41,666 nt of DNA from Escherichia phage vB_EcoM_ECO1230-10. The translations under genes and the position numbers were made by a program. The stretch is from the sequence record NC_027995.1. One strand, 5' to 3'. Within the stretch, counting starts at the first letter, position 1. The number at the start of each line of letters is the position of its first letter. Positions 5,241-18,556 of this stretch are shown here, in pieces. The notes below the pieces were generated by a model. That model was not told the DNA's origin and ran no database searches. It was given only the letters and a program-made list of their open reading frames with translations.

Positions 5241-5650
5241 CAGTTGAACCGCCGAAGTTGCAAATTGAATTCCTGTTTGCGTGGCGCACCGAACGCCGCG
5301 AACAATGATTGTTTTTCGTCAATGGCTTCAATCAGCCACTTGCCCCACAGCTTACCCAGGCCGTCCACCAGCAACAGCGGCTGACCACGTCCAGCCATGC
5401 TGCGCATTTGCTCTACCTGCTGAAAACCGCCACGGTATTCAGGGTAAATGATGCCAGCCAGGGTGATGGTTTCCTCTCCAATACCCACGAATTGCGATGA
5501 TGGTCGCTGGCCAAAACGGTGCTGCGATGGCCACTTATATTCGCTGTGGCGGTTCAGTTCCTGATATGCAGCAGTGAGGATGCAGAACTGGAAGCCGCCC
5601 AACATCATCATGATGTTGGTCTGCCCGGTTAAAATCGTGAAACTGGTCAT
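5240..5650 (-). CDS. tail protein U (P2 gpU-like)
   Basis: YQEL...S...P....G.RP..QF.G.GEETITL.G..YPE..GG and WLIEAIDEKQ motifs typical of gpU. Confidence 0.8.
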   Translation of the reverse strand: MTSFTILTGQTNIMMMLGGFQFCILTAAYQELNRHSEYKWPSQHRFGQRPSSQFVGIGEETITLAGIIYPEYRGGFQQVEQMRSMAGRGQPLLLVDGLGKLWGKWLIEAIDEKQSLFAAFGAPRKQEFNLQLRRFN

Positions 5651-7992
5651 GGTGCCGTCACTCCGTCATTCATCATGCTGCGCTGGCGCACCTGGCGTCG
5701 GCGCTCCTGTTCGTCGGCAATACGTTTGGCCAGGTCGGCGTTGTTCTCACCAGGGCGCTGCGTCACCTGAATGGTGGTTGTGCTGCTGTCGGTGTACGTA
5801 CTGCCGCCACGGTTTGCCAGGGCAGGCGCTGGCAATGCGTTACCTGGCGTCATCGGTGATGCCAGTGTGTTACCTTCTGGTACGTCATCACCACCAAACG
5901 GATTGCGGAAAAAGTCTTTTGTTGACTCCCACGCGCTGCCAGCCATGTCAGAAACGCTGTTTTTGAAATCAATGGCTTTTTGCGTCAGTGCGCCAATGTT
6001 GTCAGAAACCCAAATGATCTTATCAATCAGGAACTGAATTGGCCCCAACACAAAATCAATGCCTGCGGCAAGCGCCTTGCCGAACTTCTGGCCAGCGTCA
6101 CCGGCCTTTTTCAGTTCTTCGCTGCTGTAGCTCACCGGTTCGGCCAGTTTTGTGAACCAATCCCACACCTTGCCAGCAACGTCAGCAACCCACTGGAACG
6201 CGGTTTTGACTGGCCCTAACTTATCCCACAGCGCCTGGAATTTCTCCGTCACTGGTTGCAACCCTTGCTGGATTCCCTGCAAAGTGCCGGTCATGAACGC
6301 TTTGACGCCAGCCCAATTGCGGTAAATCCACAGGCCGCCAAGCGCCAGTCCGGTAATCAGGGCACCAATGCCGGTGGAAATGAACGCCGCACCTATGGCG
6401 CGCACACCAGCGACAACGGCAGGGATTCCACGCGTTGCCATGCCCAACAGTCCACCGTTGGCCACGGTAGCTGCGGCACCAACCGCACGCGAGGAAACTG
6501 CGGTCAAGGCCATCTGTGCGCGGGCACCAGCCAGGGCGCCTACAATACGAAGCGCACCACCACGCAGGTACGTGAACGCGAAGCCAGCAGCAAACGTGGC
6601 AATGCGCATGGTAATCAGTGCGCCAGCCGTGGCTACAATGGCTTTGGTGACAACCGGGTGCGCTTGCGCCAGTTCTGTAACCTTGCCAATCCACGGACTA
6701 ATGGTTTTCAGGACGCTGTTGAATGCTGGAAGCAGCACGCTGCCAATAGTGATACCAAGTGCGGTGATCTGGTTTCGGAATATTACCAGTTCGTTTGCCG
6801 TTGTTGCGGCCCGTGCCTGGTATTCTTTTTCCATCGAACCGGCATATTTCATTTTGTTCGCTACAGCGTCAAAATTCTTTTCCAGTTCCTTGATGTTCGT
6901 CAGCAATGGCGCAATTGAACCAACAACCTCTTTGCCAAAAAGCTGCGTCAGAACCGCTGACTGTTCGTGTTTCCGCAGTTTTGCAACCTGCTTGAGAATG
7001 ACAAGCATGGTTTTTTTGGAGTCCAGTTGCATGGATTTTGCAACTGCTGTTGAGGAATAGCCAAGCCGTGCGAATGCTTCGCGCTGCGATTTTGTCGCAG
7101 CTTTACCCGCCGTCAGTGACAGCATCAGGTTTTTGATACCAGTGGCGGCAATCTCGTTTTGCACACCCATGCCGCGCAGTGTCGCACCAAGTGCGGCAAT
7201 CTCACCGGAAGCAGTACCGGCAACCTCGCCAAGTGGCCCGATGCGCTGCACGATCTCCATGATGTCTTTGGCTGATGCGGCAGTGTTATTGCCCAGGTAG
7301 TTGATTTTGTCAGCCAGGACGACAACCTGTTGCTGGTTCATCTTGAACGCAGAGCGCATCTCTGCCATCGCCTGGCCTGCCTGGTCAGCGGTGATGTCGA
7401 ACGCCACGCCCATCTTGATGGCTGATTCCGCAAACGTCATCAGTTCTTTGGCTGCAATGCCAGACTGACCACCCGCGGCAACGATCTTGCCAATGTCGTT
7501 GGCTGTCATCGGCAGAACTTTTGACATGTTGATAATGTCCTGCCCCATCTTTTTGAATCCGTCAGGTGTGTCGAAATCAACAACCTTTTTCACGTCAGCC
7601 ATCGTGGATTCAAAATCAATAGCGGCTTTGACCGGTGCGGCGATAGTGGCACCCAGGGCAATGGTGCCCATGATCCCATCTTTGTATTGTTCACGCTTCG
7701 CCAGGTTGCGTTCGCGGGCATCCTCCACGCGTTTCAGGCGTTCGGTGGCGGTGCGCAGTTTGTCAACCGCAGCAACGTTGGCGGCATATTTGGCGCGCAG
7801 TGAATCAACGTTTTTGCCCTGGCGGCCAAACGTCTGGATGGCGTTGGTTAGTGTGCGTTGTTCGCGTTCCAGCTTGGCCATTGCTGCGCCAACCTGTTCC
7901 ACAGATGATTTGACGGTGCCGAATGCGCCTTTAAGGCTGCTTGAAACTGCCCCGCCTATCGTGATCGTTGCATTGAGCTTCTTATTTGCCAT
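5647..7992 (-). CDS. tail tape measure protein
   Basis: 781 aa, Ala/Gly-rich with coiled-coil N-terminus; sits between E/E' chaperone and U. Confidence 0.85.
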   Translation of the reverse strand: MANKKLNATITIGGAVSSSLKGAFGTVKSSVEQVGAAMAKLEREQRTLTNAIQTFGRQGKNVDSLRAKYAANVAAVDKLRTATERLKRVEDARERNLAKREQYKDGIMGTIALGATIAAPVKAAIDFESTMADVKKVVDFDTPDGFKKMGQDIINMSKVLPMTANDIGKIVAAGGQSGIAAKELMTFAESAIKMGVAFDITADQAGQAMAEMRSAFKMNQQQVVVLADKINYLGNNTAASAKDIMEIVQRIGPLGEVAGTASGEIAALGATLRGMGVQNEIAATGIKNLMLSLTAGKAATKSQREAFARLGYSSTAVAKSMQLDSKKTMLVILKQVAKLRKHEQSAVLTQLFGKEVVGSIAPLLTNIKELEKNFDAVANKMKYAGSMEKEYQARAATTANELVIFRNQITALGITIGSVLLPAFNSVLKTISPWIGKVTELAQAHPVVTKAIVATAGALITMRIATFAAGFAFTYLRGGALRIVGALAGARAQMALTAVSSRAVGAAATVANGGLLGMATRGIPAVVAGVRAIGAAFISTGIGALITGLALGGLWIYRNWAGVKAFMTGTLQGIQQGLQPVTEKFQALWDKLGPVKTAFQWVADVAGKVWDWFTKLAEPVSYSSEELKKAGDAGQKFGKALAAGIDFVLGPIQFLIDKIIWVSDNIGALTQKAIDFKNSVSDMAGSAWESTKDFFRNPFGGDDVPEGNTLASPMTPGNALPAPALANRGGSTYTDSSTTTIQVTQRPGENNADLAKRIADEQERRRQVRQRSMMNDGVTAP

Positions 7993-7998
7993 TTATTT

Positions 7999-8408
7999 TT
8001 AAGCCTTCGGCAATCCTTCCAACCACCACACAAAGCGGGAAACCCGCAACCTTTGAATTTCCGATAACTGCCAGCCCGTATGACTTGCGAGCGCCAAAGC
8101 GCCCGCGCGTATGTATTCCGGGCTTAATCTAAAAAACTGATGTAGGCAGCCTGTAGGCGCTTATAGTCTTTCAGCGGCAGGCGGCGGATGTCATCAGGTG
8201 CCTGTTCACACAGGTTGGCAAACGTCTGGATTTCGCGCGCAGCATCGCTGCCGCCCATGTCGCTTGCAATCTCCTGGTCAGCCACGGTGGGTTCGCGCAT
8301 ACGCAGCACGGAAACGTCAACGCCCGCGATTTTCAGCGGTCGTGACAGGGTGATGTCACAGTGGCCGGTTTCGTTGTTGAATTTCAGGTAATCAGGTAAT
8401 TTCGCCAT
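7999..8408 (-). CDS. tail assembly chaperone E+E' (-1 frameshift product, about 136 aa)
   Basis: -1 frame is open from slippery site to TAA at 7999-8001, 8 nt before tape-measure ATG; extension RLSPEYIRAGALALASHTGWQLSEIQRLRVSRFVWWLEGLPKA. Confidence 0.55.
8124..8408 (-). CDS. tail assembly chaperone E (P2 gpE-like)
   Basis: 94-aa ORF directly upstream of tape measure; ends ...ISFLD with slippery site in last codons. Confidence 0.7.
   Translation of the reverse strand: MAKLPDYLKFNNETGHCDITLSRPLKIAGVDVSVLRMREPTVADQEIASDMGGSDAAREIQTFANLCEQAPDDIRRLPLKDYKRLQAAYISFLD
8130..8136 (-). promoter_or_regulatory. -1 programmed ribosomal frameshift slippery heptamer T_TTT_TTA
   Basis: plus-strand taaaaaa; in gene E frame reads AGT TTT TTA GAT TAA. 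Confidence 0.55.
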
Positions 8409-8468: not shown

Positions 8469-8975
8469 TTACATCGCCAGCGCAGAACGGATGGCTGCCA
8501 GGGTGTCTACACCGTTGATGATGCGCACCATGTTTTCCACGTCGATTTCGTGGATGGTCTTTCCGTTATGCTGCTGTTTGAAATAGTTCAGGCTGACAGT
8601 GACGTTAAGGGAACTCAGTTCCCCAGGCGTCCAGGTGCCTGGCTCCATGCTGGTGATTTTGCCGCGCATGTTCATGACAACGGCTTTAACGCTGCCGTCA
8701 TAGGATTCCAGCGCACCGCGAAACGTCAGCGGAACGCTTGCACCTTCTGACAGGCCAAACAGCGCCAGCACGTCAGAATCATAAGCACGCAGCGCAAAGC
8801 TGGCTTCCAGCTTTTCCATGCCCAACGTCACATCAATGGGCGCGTCCATGCCGCCTGCGCGGAATTCTTCGGTTTGCAGGGTTAAGGTGGGCGGCGTGAC
8901 GCTCTCCACCTGGCCCGCGTAACCACGGCCATCAACAAATAAGTTGATGTTTTTCAAAACGTCACGTGCGGCCAT
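8469..8975 (-). CDS. major tail tube protein (P2 FII-like)
   Basis: 168 aa; NLFVDG...TEEFRAGG pattern; follows sheath gene with TAATG overlap. Confidence 0.8.
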   Translation of the reverse strand: MAARDVLKNINLFVDGRGYAGQVESVTPPTLTLQTEEFRAGGMDAPIDVTLGMEKLEASFALRAYDSDVLALFGLSEGASVPLTFRGALESYDGSVKAVVMNMRGKITSMEPGTWTPGELSSLNVTVSLNYFKQQHNGKTIHEIDVENMVRIINGVDTLAAIRSALAM

Positions 8976-10399
8976 TATTCGAATACCTCACTAATATAAT
9001 CGTTGGTCAATTGGCTGCGGAAGATAATGTGTTCAGCCGGATAAACAGGCGTGAAATCAAAATCAAAGTATACCTTACCATCCGCGATCTGGTCAGCAGT
9101 ATTTAAGTCAGGGTCAGCCCAACACGTGCCGCCAAGAATTGCGCCCAGGCTCACCAGGTTGCGCAGGTACGCGTTCACGCCTTCAATCACGTCATTGACG
9201 TATTGTTTGGTGATGCCACGGTCTACGGCCCACAGGTGTGCACGCAGCAGACTGTCATTGATGATGTCAGCCGTGCGAACCACGCACAGGAACGCCCATT
9301 TCTGATCGCTGGAACAGGTGCGGTTGCCCCACAGGCGGAAACCGTCCTGGCGAATGATGGTGGTGACTTCGTTTTCATTCAGCAGGTTTGCACGGCTGGA
9401 TGTGTCACCCAGGGTGAAATCAATGGTTCGGGCCGTGCCCTGGATGCCATAGATTTCCTGGTTTGATGGTGACCACCAGAAACCGCGCTCGTTGTCGATG
9501 CGGGCAATCAGACCAGCCACGCGCGGCGATGCCCAATCAGTAATCGTGGTTCCATCTTCGTCAAGCACCAGCACTTTTGGGTCAACCACATAAACGCGCT
9601 TGCTGCCAAAGTCTTTGCGGTAGGCGATAGCGTCAGCGTCGTTGGTGTTTGGACCATCGGCAATGATGACGGCACGCAGGCGGTTGGCGATGCCAAGCAG
9701 TTCAGAAACCACGGCGTTTGCCGCCACTCCAACGGATGCGGTTGCAGTTGCGCCGGTGCCGTTTCCGCCAGTGATGGCTACGGTTGGCGCTGTGGTGTAA
9801 CCCATACCGGAATTGGTGACGGTGATTTTGGTGATTACTCCACCAACCACAGTGGCTTGCGCTGTTGCGCCAGTGCCACCGCCACCTGTCAGGGAGATCG
9901 TAGGCGTTTCGGTGTAGCCGCTGCCGCCGTTGCCGATACTGATAGCCGTGACGCCATCCTGAACGCGGGTATGCGTGAAGCCAGGCACGCACAGAATGCG
10001 AGGCGAGTAGCCCACAACGGATTCAGCGCCAAGCAGTGCGTGAACGCCTTCATATTTGCCGGTTGATGCGTTAACGCCACCCATGATGTTGGCCAGTGTT
10101 GCTGCTTCGTCTTCGCCTTCTTCAACACGCACAACGATGACCACAGCGCCGATCTGGTCAAGGATGGCATCCAGTGCTTTTGGCAGTGTGCCTTCACCGG
10201 TGCCAAGCATGTCCAGTTTTGCCGCTTCGCGCTGGCTGCCAGCAATCAGGGTAGGGGTGTTAATCGGGAATGCGTCAGGGTCGGCATTCGGCGCTGTGCC
10301 TACAATGCCAATGACGCTGGATTTAACGGTTTGAATGACGCGTGAACCGGAATCAATTTCCAGCACCTCCACGCCATGTAAGAAATCAGTACCTGCCAT
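8975..10399 (-). CDS. tail sheath protein (P2 FI-like), start corrected to internal ATG
   Basis: [18 protein letters not shown] sheath N-terminus; ATG at 10399 preceded by AGGAAA; track ORF starts further upstream at a non-ATG codon. Confidence 0.85.
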
Positions 10400-10470
10400 T
10401 ATTCGGTTTCCTATTAACTGTGCACACAGTGAAAATTCGCAGTGTGATGGTCGCAGGAACCGTGCGTGGC

Positions 10471-10488
10471 TTCTTCTTGGGGTTTGTC
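10471..10488 (-). promoter_or_regulatory. late-junction motif copy 1 (GACAAACCCCAAGAAGAA), upstream of sheath
   Basis: exact 18-mer; 72 nt from sheath ATG; just downstream of Tfa terminator. Confidence 0.45.
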
Positions 10489-10490
10489 CG

Positions 10491-10514
10491 TAAAAAAGCC
10501 CGCGTGATGCGGGC
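10491..10514 (-). terminator. intrinsic terminator after tail-fibre assembly gene
   Basis: minus sense gcccgc-atcac-gcgggc followed by TTTTTTA. Confidence 0.6.
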
Positions 10515-10693
10515 AAAGGCGACAAATCAGTAACCGATGGCGAACCAGTCAACGGTTAGTGTTGTTGTTCCTGGTGCTGTCCCTTCATTCTGCACCCCGC
10601 CAAGAATGCTTGAAAATGTGGTTAGCGTACGCCCGCTGATGTTAGCATATTCAAGAACAATGTTTTTGTTAGTTATGCCTCTAAAGACTTCGC

Positions 10694-16390: not shown

Positions 16391-16729
16391 TTATGTCACC
16401 ACTATGCCATCAATCGTTATTTGTTTGCCGTCTGGCAGGTATTCGCCGGTAATGGAAAATTCCACGCGCCCTGGCACCGCTGCGGTGGCTGTCACCTGCT
16501 GCACGCTGATGCGTGGTTCCCAGGCTTCCAGCGCTTCCGCCGTCGCTGCGTACAGGTCCAGCAGCGTGCTGCGGTTCATTGGTGCATCAACCAGGTACGG
16601 CAACCGGCTGCCGTAGTCGCGGCGCATCACTCTCGTGCCAATTGGCGTCGTGAGTATGTCACGTATGGATTGGCGCAGATGGTCCAGGCCATCCAGCGGC
16701 GCGCCTGTTGCCGCGTTTGTTCCTTTCAT
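16391..16729 (-). CDS. baseplate protein W (gp25-like)
   Basis: LRQSIRDILTTPIGTRVMRRDYGS matches GPW/gp25 signature. Confidence 0.85.
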   Translation of the reverse strand: MKGTNAATGAPLDGLDHLRQSIRDILTTPIGTRVMRRDYGSRLPYLVDAPMNRSTLLDLYAATAEALEAWEPRISVQQVTATAAVPGRVEFSITGEYLPDGKQITIDGIVVT

Positions 16730-16762
16730 GCGGGCAATGATGCCCGCATGGCCAGTGTTTTA

Positions 16763-16779
16763 TCTTCTTGGGGTTTGTC
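16763..16779 (-). promoter_or_regulatory. late-junction motif copy 2 (17 of 18), between V and W
   Basis: starts 4 nt after V stop; 34 nt from W ATG; followed by hairpin catgcgggc/gcccgcatg that contains the W start codon. Confidence 0.4.
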
Positions 16780-16782
16780 AGG

Positions 16783-17436
16783 TCAGACAGGTGCGCCGGT
16801 GTTGCTTCCGCCAGACTGCACGCCGCTGTGGCTGTGGTCACTGCCAACGTTTTTGCCGTTGTGGGTCAGGCTTGGCCCCTCGATGGAAACCGCGCCTTTC
16901 ATGGTCGCGCTGCCGCCCTCCTGGCCCATCGTCAGGCTTTTGGCCACGGTCAGGTTTCCGGTGCAAAACGTGTCAGGCGTGTCCATGGTGACGCTGGTGG
17001 ATGCCGTCACCGTGGCCGTTTCGGTGTTAACGTTAGCCTGTTTGCAGTTGATGATGACGTTACCCGCGCCAGCTACGGTGATGGTCAGCGTGTTACTGGC
17101 GCTGTTGTAGTCAACAGTTGTGCCATCAGGGTAAACGGTTGTTTCCTGGTCGGCGCTGGCTGCTGGCGCTGCGTGGTCATCCTGGAAGATTGAAGGTCCG
17201 ATGACGGCCTGGCCTAAATCGCCATAAGGCGCAAACAACACCACCTGTTCACCGATGACAGGCGGTGACCAGTCGCGTCGCTTGCCAGCGCGGTTAGTTC
17301 CCCAGGGCAGCCAGTCAGTGGTGCAGCCAGCTACAGAAACCTTTGCCCGCGCGTTGGCCAGATCCAGTTGCTTAATGGTTCCGATGCGAACAACGTTGTT
17401 TAGCTGGCGGTTCAGTTCGCTAACTTCTGCGCTCAT
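16783..17436 (-). CDS. baseplate central spike protein V
   Basis: gpV-like N-terminal OB region; C-terminal Thr/Val-rich spike segment with DHSHSGVQSGG tip. Confidence 0.8.
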   Translation of the reverse strand: MSAEVSELNRQLNNVVRIGTIKQLDLANARAKVSVAGCTTDWLPWGTNRAGKRRDWSPPVIGEQVVLFAPYGDLGQAVIGPSIFQDDHAAPAASADQETTVYPDGTTVDYNSASNTLTITVAGAGNVIINCKQANVNTETATVTASTSVTMDTPDTFCTGNLTVAKSLTMGQEGGSATMKGAVSIEGPSLTHNGKNVGSDHSHSGVQSGGSNTGAPV

Positions 17437-18002
17437 GGTGCCACCTGTTCGTAATCTTCTTCGTTCCCGGTGCCGATTTCAGGACTCCAGGAGAAAAACA
17501 CCTGTGATGGTGTAATACCCTCATCGTTCCAGACACTTTCACCCAAGTGGATGACTTGCTGCCACTCCACGCGCCACACCTCGAATTTGTCCAGTTCCGG
17601 GGTGAAGTCGTCAGGGAAGCCGCCAACCACGTTGGCTGGCCCTGTGGGCAGTTTCTTGGCCGGGTTAGCCTGGTTGGTCCAGCGGCGCTTGCGCAGCCAG
17701 GCCATGAAGGCAGCGGCCAGCGTCCTGATGGCCAGGGCGGCACGCGGCGTGCGGATGCTGTTGATGATAAAATGCGCCTCAAACGTGGCCACTACAGCCA
17801 GTTGTTCGGTGCCGGGGTCAATGTCGTTGTCTGCCTCCATTTCGCTGATTGTCAGCAGGCAGGCAGGGATTGGCAGCGTTTTGCGCGCTTCCGGGTCATC
17901 CTGGTAAAACTCCACGGTGACCAGTTGCGGGAATGCGGCTTTGATGTCGGCCACAATGGCGCTGTGCAGCACTTCTAAATCAATGTGAGTATCGGCGTTC
18001 AT
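17433..18002 (-). CDS. putative tail completion protein (P2 R-like position)
   Basis: position between S-like gene and V; ATG at 18002 overlaps upstream TAA; the track's GTG start at 18011 is less likely. Confidence 0.4.
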   Translation of the reverse strand: MNADTHIDLEVLHSAIVADIKAAFPQLVTVEFYQDDPEARKTLPIPACLLTISEMEADNDIDPGTEQLAVVATFEAHFIINSIRTPRAALAIRTLAAAFMAWLRKRRWTNQANPAKKLPTGPANVVGGFPDDFTPELDKFEVWRVEWQQVIHLGESVWNDEGITPSQVFFSWSPEIGTGNEEDYEQVAP

Positions 18003-18556
18003 TATGCCCACCTATCAGATGTTTCAATGTATTTTACGCGTGCCCTTAAATCGCGTTCGAAATGCTTCCAGAATATTTCTTCAACCTGCGTGAATATTTC
18101 ATCTTCAATGAAGATTTCTGCTTTGTCCTTAATGGGCATCAACTGTTCAGTGATTGGCAAGCGTGCTTTGCCAGCGCGTTTAAACACTGTGCGTTTGCCT
18201 TTCACCGTGCTGCGGCCCACAAATGCGCCGTCAAACTTCTGATCACGGAACGTGGCCCCGTCACTGGTCTGCTTGGCTCGGCCCTTAAAGCTACTCACCG
18301 GCAAATCATTTAAGCCGTACCACAACACAACGCCCTGTTGGCGCGTGCGCAGCCTGATTGATTTCAGGCGCTTGCGCATAGCCGCCATCGTGCGCAGTTG
18401 CAGTTCATCTTTCAGGCCACGGCCAGACATTTTTCGCAGGGTGGCCGCCGTGCGGTTACATGCGCGGCTTAATGCGGCTTTGAACTGCTTTTCACTGGCT
18501 TCCAGTTCAGTAGCCACGCCGCGCAGTTGTTGCCAATCCAGGTCAAAATGCAGCAT
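18002..18556 (-). CDS. putative virion morphogenesis / tail completion protein (P2 S / Mu G-like)
   Basis: 184 aa basic protein at the head-tail junction of the late operon. Confidence 0.45.
   Translation of the reverse strand: MLHFDLDWQQLRGVATELEASEKQFKAALSRACNRTAATLRKMSGRGLKDELQLRTMAAMRKRLKSIRLRTRQQGVVLWYGLNDLPVSSFKGRAKQTSDGATFRDQKFDGAFVGRSTVKGKRTVFKRAGKARLPITEQLMPIKDKAEIFIEDEIFTQVEEIFWKHFERDLRARVKYIETSDRWA

Follow-up and report, generated by a model that had tools for sequence, protein, structure and literature searches.

Tail assembly chaperones and −1 frameshifting

Phage P2 encodes its tail assembly chaperone in two lengths. Gene E, whose product belongs to PF10109, has the tail tube gene (FII) on one side and the tape-measure gene (T) on the other. 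A −1 frameshift in this gene gives rise to E and E+E′ (Christie et al. 2002, J Bacteriol 184:6522, via PMC3091744 and PMC5009743), and the P2 RefSeq record (NC_001895) annotates E (91 aa), E+E′ (142 aa, by the −1 shift), and T. In lambda, the gene just upstream of the tape-measure gene yields a short and a long protein, G and GT, which have a common N-terminus, through low-level −1 shifting close to its 3′ end. The logic of this arrangement, as PMC5009743 sets it out, is a fixed ratio of short to long chaperone (Levin 1993; Xu, Hendrix and Duda 2004, 2013, 2014); the same source gives the lambda ratio as about 30:1 and relates that P2-type shifting has been reported to be 2–3 times higher. A further point of reference is HIV-1 gag-pol, which shifts on the heptamer U_UUU_UUA and whose junction is mixed, with about 70–80% Leu and 20–30% Phe (PMC5009743).

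A locus of this kind is described here in the genome of Escherichia phage vB_EcoM_ECO1230-10 (NC_027995.1), analyzed as one stretch of 41,666 nucleotides that is called the window throughout. We consider it highly likely that a −1 ribosomal slip at the end of the window's gene E yields an E+E′ chaperone in the manner of P2 and lambda, and, judged from sequence comparison, the E+E′ product is almost certainly made, as it is with P2 E/E+E′ and lambda G/GT. Position, chaperone family, slip site, a −1 open reading frame without a start codon, and coding constraint are the marks that the locus has in common with the class to which lambda G/GT and P2 E/E+E′ belong (Xu et al. 2004), and by these sequence marks it is a member of that class. 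A frameshift at the end of E is known in the related phages Mano and Mica and is new for the annotation of Jilinvirus.

Gene neighborhood and anatomy of the locus

By its sequence, the window is the genome of a Jilinvirus (subfamily Iiscvirinae) or a close relative, with the region in question displaying 98.5% identity to Escherichia phage ET-SD-TH and 90–96% identity to ECOO78, PT1, HeidiAbel_Bas97, and ep3. A megablast search of complete E. coli genomes retrieved no prophage copy, and a sequence search of the PDB found no solved relative. The genes run in the order tail sheath, tube (PF04985), E, tape measure (PF10145), and homologues of gpU (PF06995), gpX (PF05489), and gpD (PF05954), which on the strength of these family assignments is a P2-type contractile-tail block. 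Homologues of U and D lie downstream in both phages, and the window's block, unlike that of P2, has the gpX gene between them.

Directly upstream of E, the FII-like tail tube gene (8975..8469, minus strand) encodes a 168-aa protein that matches Phage_tube (PF04985, E = 1.8e-57). Gene E itself (8408..8124, minus strand; stop TAA at 8126..8124) encodes the tail assembly chaperone, a zero-frame product of 94 aa and 10.5 kDa that matches Phage_TAC_7 in Pfam (PF10109, E = 6.6e-18, 65 bits against a cut-off of 25) and the tail protein family phrog_166 in PHROGs (E = 2e-22). On its other side stands the tape measure protein gene (7992..5647, minus strand), whose 781-aa product matches PhageMin_Tail (PF10145, E = 1.8e-36) and is the presumed client of E and E+E′. 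The original prediction had likened the locus to the G/GT and E/E′ frameshifts upstream of tape-measure genes, and the likeness holds: a PF10109 protein is encoded between a PF04985 tube and a PF10145 tape measure, and the −1 frame is under constraint in 16 phages.

On the minus strand, the 3′ end of gene E reads ...GCC TAC ATC AGT TTT TTA GAT TAA. The slippery heptamer T_TTT_TTA, which had been picked out from the ending AGT TTT TTA GAT TAA, is confirmed at 8136..8130 (minus strand) in the X_XXY_YYZ register of the zero frame, with TTT as the P-site codon, TTA as the A-site codon, and one sense codon (3 nt) between the heptamer and the E stop. It begins with the U_UUU tetramer (8136..8133, minus strand), that is, the Phe codon TTT at 8135..8133 after a T, which is the sole slip-site element kept family-wide. 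A stop at 8163..8161 closes the −1 frame upstream, and from 8160 onward the frame is open, so that a productive shift is confined to 8160..8124 (minus strand), the zone of 11 codons up to the E stop in which the zero and −1 frames are both open. T_TTT_TTA is the only heptamer in this zone, and close relatives have the same 11-codon overlap.

The E′ extension (8130..7999, minus strand) consists of 43 sense codons in the −1 frame (RLSPEYIRAGALALASHTGWQLSEIQRLRVSRFVWWLEGLPKA) followed by TAA at 8001..7999, in agreement with the earlier claim of a 43-codon open frame across the gap between E and the tape-measure gene, which measures 131 nt. The coordinates given for the feature likewise stood, but its strand had been left unstated and is minus. 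Full-length E+E′, join(8408..8130, 8130..7999), has a predicted length of 136 aa and a predicted mass of 15.4 kDa, and the −1-frame translation of the minus strand gives LSPEYIR and AGALALASHTGWQLSEIQR as predicted tryptic peptides of E′.

Compared with P2, both heptamers are of the U6R type near the 3′ end of E (T_TTT_TTG in P2, T_TTT_TTA in the window), but the distance from the heptamer to the E stop is 18 nt in P2 and 3 nt in the window. The −1 extension runs in both phages for about 45–55 codons and ends at the start of the tape-measure gene. P2 E′ overlaps T by 8 nt, whereas E′ of the window ends short of the tape-measure ATG (7992), separated from it by the 6-nt spacer AAATAA and not by the 8 nt originally predicted.

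With lambda G/GT, the locus shares the short and long proteins with a common N-terminus, the presumed low-level −1 shift near the 3′ end, and the place just upstream of the tape-measure gene; no sequence similarity is detectable between lambda G/GT and the window's E/E′. The lambda slip site is G_GGA_AAG and serves a non-contractile tail, whereas T_TTT_TTA of the window belongs to a P2-type contractile-tail block. True homologues are found in Mano, Mica, and Murka, with E 44–47% and E′ 61–73% identical to those of the window and with the same gene order and an aligned slip Phe codon, but with slip sequences unlike the window's (described below). The heptamer of HIV-1 is identical to that of the window, but it is read by a eukaryotic ribosome, and the gene and its stimulatory element are unrelated to those of the window. 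The mixed junction formed in HIV-1 on this same heptamer predicts that both Leu and Phe junction variants would occur in the window's E+E′.

Coding constraint on the −1 frame

From the window alone, the frameshift pattern is weak against chance. TTTTTTA occurs 5 times against 6.9 expected, X_XXY_YYZ stands in frame at 0.2% of codon positions, 4 of 46 long open reading frames carry such a heptamer at most 10 codons from their stop, and the chance of a 43-codon open frame is about 0.15 at the base composition of the window. The pattern rises far above chance because of comparative evidence, namely conservation among relatives, pN/pS, and the slip codon.

For this comparison, E′ was aligned across 16 phages (the window and 15 GenBank relatives), and substitutions were analyzed over 117 nt lying wholly downstream of the E stop, using Nei-Gojobori pN/pS with the window as reference. 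E′ aligns over 44 codons without a gap in all 16 phages, none of which has a −1-frame stop in the 117 nt past the E stop. Column entropy at −1-frame codon positions 1, 2, and 3 amounts to 0.58, 0.36, and 1.20, respectively, and pN/pS is 0.03–0.35 in the −1 frame, the two remaining frames giving values from about 0.7 to over 7. Codon periodicity together with a low pN/pS solely in the −1 frame indicates that the stretch is protein-coding in that frame.

These measurements bear on the alternative that the gap is a non-coding spacer, holding a promoter, a terminator, or a structured RNA for the tape-measure gene, with an open −1 frame that is coincidental. Such a spacer would fit the deposited Jilinvirus records, every one of which leaves the gap unannotated (nothing is entered between E and the tape-measure gene in ECOO78, ep3, HeidiAbel/Bas97, PT1, or Arya, or in the record of ET-SD-TH), and would fit both the chance probability given above for the open frame and the presence of one terminator-like hairpin at 8047..8035. 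It leaves unexplained why substitutions follow a codon period and why purifying selection is strong in the −1 frame and in neither of the others; moreover, the region has no Rfam match and no promoter-like site, its terminator-like sites are no commoner than in shuffled sequences, and its folding energy is ordinary. A non-coding spacer is thus a vanishingly improbable reading of the gap. Papers describing Jilinvirus phages make no mention of a frameshift. The records of Achromobacter phage Mano and Burkholderia phage Mica, the work of Center for Phage Technology curators, annotate a homologous "tape measure chaperone frameshift product". In ep3 and Alux-21, an inserted endonuclease-like gene sits downstream of the E′ stop, which is intact.

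In all distant relatives, E′ is conserved better than the body of E, the identities to the window for E′ and E being 73% versus 45% in Murka, 83% versus 54% in KA2-1, and 71% versus 41% in Alexa. A tblastn search with the fused 136-aa query recovered two pieces in two frames from about 35 phage records, 33 of which cover at least 80% of the query, with identity reaching down to about 50% within the window's lineage and to about 34% at the weakest. The hosts of the matched phages include Serratia, Klebsiella, Pseudomonas, Xanthomonas, Ralstonia, Achromobacter, Burkholderia, and Acinetobacter. Scanning IMG/VR with the E′ alignment identified 236 loci that encode the E′ peptide. The distance from the E′ stop to the tape-measure start ranges from −20 (an overlap) to +12 nt in most relatives.

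Entry into the E′ frame

Conservation of E′ begins at the slip codon, with the pattern F-[YFH]-x-L-x-x-x-[YF]-[IV]-R..., and this weighs against the alternative that E′ is no fusion but a free-standing small protein, translated from a start of its own or by reinitiation after termination at the E stop. A 32-aa open reading frame with a TTG start does exist in the E′ frame of the window (7999..8097), the record of Xanthomonas phage Murka enters E′ as a stand-alone 35-aa CDS, and two stand-alone proteins of 39–40 aa are found in the protein database. In every phage, however, the peptide is conserved for at least 12 codons upstream of the first possible start: past the slip site, the E′ frame offers no ATG, GTG, or TTG before codon 12–13, the place of the first such codon varies among phages, and in phage Alexa the whole frame is free of start codons. 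Nor does the 11-codon overlap before the E stop hold a start in the −1 frame, and the few candidate start codons farther upstream, which occur within E in Mano, Mica, PPpW-3, and Persinger, are unconserved. On these sequence grounds, the conserved N-terminal third of E′ cannot stem from independent initiation or reinitiation, and as an account of E′ as a whole we hold either to be extremely unlikely.

Since the conserved part of E′ starts at the slip codon and thus ahead of every possible start, the frame can be reached only from E by a −1 shift. The original proposal of a −1 frameshift giving E+E′ gains support from pN/pS, the lack of a usable start, and a T_TTY that is universal among the loci surveyed.

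The slip site across relatives

T_TTT_TTA, 3 nt before the E stop, is present in the window, ET-SD-TH, ep3, and Alux-21. In other relatives, the heptamer lies one codon further upstream and reads A_AAT_TTT (ECOO78, HeidiAbel, PT1, Arya, MQ-4, KA2-1, Mica, and Alexa), G_GGT_TTT (Mano), or G_GGT_TTC (PPpW-3 and Persinger), and Murka has CGT TTT only, a T_TTT tetramer with no canonical heptamer. Comparison of the 3′ end of E in ECOO78 (GTA AAT TTT ATC GAC TAA) with that in the window (ATC AGT TTT TTA GAT TAA) reveals a heptamer displaced by one codon, a TTT codon common to both, and the same product length. That the slip site has moved between ECOO78, PT1, and Arya on the one hand and the window on the other without a change in product length argues for selection on slipperiness.

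A wider survey of the slip site drew on 80 loci fetched from the 236 in IMG/VR. T_TTY occupies the aligned position in all 80, as it does in 15 of 15 GenBank relatives (95 in total), and 79 of the 80 have it three codons ahead of the E stop; in the exception (L024), the zero frame continues for 33 nt. A canonical heptamer surrounds T_TTY in 47 of the 80 loci, mostly G_GGT_TTT, A_AAT_TTT, or G_GGT_TTC. The heptamer at the window's offset (U_UUU_UUR/C) occurs in 7 of the 80, 3 of which also have the upstream heptamer, and 33 of the 80 have the tetramer alone, with no canonical heptamer. A universal T_TTY combined with a variable heptamer points to U_UUY as the conserved core of the signal, and the window's heptamer is, as far as the aligned sites tell, one of several interchangeable contexts round this core and of a minority type.

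These same data speak to a second route to the fusion, in which RNA polymerase adds one U on the T6 run. The six consecutive T's that would permit this are present at 8136..8131, although six is short for efficient transcriptional slippage. E′ of most relatives follows runs of only 3–4 identical bases (A_AAT_TTT, G_GGT_TTC, GCT_TTC), which are too short for the polymerase and suit re-pairing of a tRNA. Such products are known to arise when a polymerase slips on a homopolymer run (PMC5009743), but because relatives with runs of 3–4 bases encode the same E′, we judge this route very unlikely here and retain ribosomal frameshifting as the preferred explanation.

A less distant alternative concerns which element the ribosome slips on. 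The operative signal could be the U_UUU tetramer, with a single slip of tRNA-Phe, and T_TTT_TTA incidental or a modest enhancer. This would accord with the survey, in which T_TTY occurs in 80 of 80 loci yet 33 of them have no canonical heptamer, and with work in E. coli, where U_UUC and U_UUU are among the few tetramers that are shift-prone when given a stimulator (Sharma 2014, PMC4066793). According to the same study, however, tetramers barely shift without a stimulator, and the stimulator at the present locus is a candidate; the heptamer is also maintained in 47 of 80 loci, and the sub-clade of the window gained a new heptamer as the ancestral A_AAT_TTT went, which suggests that heptamer context matters. 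A signal consisting of the tetramer is the less likely, though not a remote, reading.

Background on the efficiency of such sites comes from E. coli. In a systematic study, UUY A-site codons shifted better than UUA or UUG, with R_RR.U_UU.Y motifs as efficient exceptions (PMC4066793). U_UUU_UUA is far less shifty than A_AAA_AAG in E. coli (PMC5009743), so that shift efficiency in the phage may be low. The site of the window is of the weaker heptamer type, which is also that of P2, and is consistent with a low-level shift.

A candidate downstream hairpin

A stimulatory hairpin downstream of the heptamer is no more than possible, the signal of selection on its structure being weak. The candidate stem-loop, tentatively placed from folds at 8124..8073 (minus strand), starts 5–6 nt past the heptamer. 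In the minimum-free-energy fold, its outer stem pairs AGCCCG (8124..8119) with CGGGCU (8078..8073) and contains the hairpin GCGGGCGC-UUUG-GCGCUCGC (8106..8087); an alternative stem, of the kind seen in relatives, pairs GCCCG at 8123..8119 with CGGGC at 8105..8101. Relatives have analogous stems with differing arm sequences, and the pairing register is unconserved, the sum of paired positions ranging from 26 to 30 across phages.

Folding z-scores for the window are not significant: −1.2 and −1.35 against dinucleotide shuffles, and −1.5 when the reference is synonymous recodings that preserve the peptide. Control coding segments from the same loci have a mean z of −0.35 to −0.44, and 18% of them lie at or below −1.5. 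Across 14 GenBank phages, synonymous-codon resampling gave a mean z of −1.6 to −1.8 for the region downstream of the slip site. For 65 unique IMG/VR loci, the mean was −0.54 versus −0.21 in controls (p = 0.02), and no difference in z was found among these 65 between heptamer loci and those with the tetramer only. In P2 and its Burkholderia relatives, a hairpin is reported to be absent (PMC3091744).

E′ as a protein family

The E′ peptide has no match in Pfam or NCBIfam and a weak one in PHROGs (phrog_10636, E = 0.0013), to a family of unknown function. PF06528 (Phage_P2_GpE) is matched by E′ of P2 (1.2e-21) and of Pasteurella phage AFS-2018a (4.3e-14), which served as controls, whereas E′ of the window and of four relatives does not match it even at E ≤ 10. 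An alignment of 12 E′ sequences from the window's clade was also compared by hhalign with one of 17 P2-type sequences, yielding a weak hit (probability 33%, P = 4.5e-4, 29 columns) that brings H/W..SE[IL]...W motifs into register (LALASHTGWxLSEI...WWLEGL versus ADIAVIFHWPPSEL...WRxKA). On this comparison, the E′ domain would be at best a distant relative of P2 GpE, lying outside the curated model. Given the lack of a Pfam or NCBIfam match and so weak a likeness to P2 GpE, a function is assigned to E′ from its position and by analogy. Protein databases contain next to no E′ (a search returned 2 matches among 5.8 billion sequences), as is to be expected of an open reading frame that escapes gene callers; this scarcity is no measure of how widely E′ is distributed.

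Proposed mechanism

In the mechanism proposed for the window, most ribosomes translating E would stop at the TAA at 8126..8124 and release the 94-aa chaperone, and a minority would slip back one nucleotide on AGU_UUU_UUA. In a tandem slip, the P-site tRNA-Phe (on UUU) and the A-site tRNA-Leu (on UUA) would move together and produce the junction ...ISFL-RLSPEY; in a single slip, tRNA-Phe alone would move on U_UUU before UUA is decoded, and the junction would be ...ISFF-RLSPEY. After either, 43 further codons would be read to complete the 136-aa E+E′, which would end just before the start of the tape-measure gene. The efficiency of the shift is probably a few per cent.

By homology with P2 and analogy with lambda G/GT, E and E+E′ would both coat the tape-measure protein through their common E part. 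The rarer E′ tail would then recruit the tube protein, so that the tail polymerizes round the tape measure, and neither chaperone would end up in the virion. These chaperone roles of E and E+E′ are transferred from the described systems, and the tail tube protein is a likely binding partner of the E′ domain, the model being the interaction of lambda gpGT with gpV (PMC5009743).

For the lineage as a whole, which comprises Jilinvirus/Iiscvirinae, Hiroshimavirus, Harrisonburgvirus, Foxunavirus, Manovirus, Micavirus, and many uncultured viruses, a broader interpretation may be advanced tentatively, as one that is plausible but has the odds somewhat against it. The signal of the lineage would be a conserved single-codon U_UUY core whose flanks have been repeatedly rebuilt (as R_RRU_UUY, as U_UUU_UUR, or as nothing), possibly with compensation by a GC hairpin that shifts its register, and E′ would constitute an uncatalogued family.

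Significance

The conceptual gain is small, since the G/GT and E/E+E′ frameshifts have been known since 1993–2004 and are expected upstream of nearly every tape-measure gene. The practical consequence is a gap in annotation: in all deposited Jilinvirus genomes, about 130 nt ahead of the tape-measure gene carry no annotation, and a probably essential tail-assembly protein is missing from the records; its E′ peptide is missed by family models as well. Several Jilinvirus phages are under study for therapy or as models.

The 80 surveyed loci, which encode the same product behind differing heptamers or a tetramer only, could be used to test the rules of bacterial −1 frameshifting. If the signal of the lineage is indeed a U_UUY core, E′ would stand as a peptide better conserved than the body of its chaperone and hidden from protein databases by its missing start codon, and the group would be a natural series for the evolution of slip sites under a constant need for the product.

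Slippery Motifs and Hairpins

The canonical −1 slippery heptamer pattern X_XXY_YYZ (underscores marking zero-frame codons) recurs in frame in three other ORFs of the window, all on the + strand, at approximately 1203-1466, 16421-17110, and 17985-18242. The motifs are TTTCCCA, GGGTTTG, and TTTAAAC, and the −1 frames past them are open over 42-138 codons, likely because the next gene occupies that frame.

Two hairpins were found inside E′, the 43-codon −1-frame extension of the tail assembly chaperone gene E. A perfect 9-bp hairpin, UUGCCAGCC-ACACC-GGCUGGCAA, is present in 10 of the 16 relatives and lies in the LASHTGWQ codons, the most conserved part of E′ (loci L001-L004 of the relatives fetched, and others). 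KA2-1 displays one apparent compensatory change within it, and the window equivalent (8068-8091, − strand) carries two mismatches. The slip site is about 45 nt away from this element, too far for a classical stimulator. The second hairpin, GCGGG-TTT-CCCGC, resembles a terminator, with a T-rich run after it, and is located at 8035-8047 (− strand) within the codons RVSRF, about 40 nt upstream of the tape-measure start. Its sequence is identical in several relatives, and the count of terminator-like hairpins was not above that of shuffles.

Annotation of Neighboring Genes

The tail tube gene (8469-8975, − strand) matches PF04985 (E = 1.8e-57). Several database entries for this phage group, deposited or RefSeq, label it “head closure”; the records concerned are NC_041926, PQ850606, NC_031048, PQ571296, and PQ589898. 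This looks like a PHROG-based mislabel that has been propagated. The mechanically called sheath ORF (8975-10552, − strand) begins at a TTG located 51 codons 5′ of the likely start, an ATG at about 10399. The sheath also contains an internally repetitive segment rich in Gly/Thr that falls outside the Pfam sheath domains and is probably an additional surface domain.

The annotated start of the tape-measure gene lies 328 nt 3′ of the E′ stop in MQ-4 (L012, 1110-1439) and 170 nt 3′ in Murka (L008, 1104-1275), unlike the −20 to +12 nt found in the other phages; the starts in these two records may be mis-called.

The Junction between E′ and the Tape-Measure Gene

An additional ORF separates the E′ stop from the tape-measure start in ep3 (L006, 2080-2763; 227 aa) and Alux-21 (L007, 2012-2629; 205 aa), with the E′ frame undisturbed in both. 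A Pfam search with this ORF returned no match, and the window has no counterpart of it between 7999 and 7992. Given that both copies match phrog_1035, “endonuclease VII” (1e-18 for ep3 and 2.5e-17 for Alux-21), the ORF looks like a homing-endonuclease-type insertion.

The E genes of Alux-21 and the window share 100% protein and 99% DNA identity, whereas identity across E′ is just 63% for protein and 56% for DNA. This drop marks a recombination breakpoint in Alux-21 (around 1877 in L007, equivalent to about 8124 in the window) exactly at the E/E′ boundary, which suggests that E′ and the tape-measure gene move together, separately from E.
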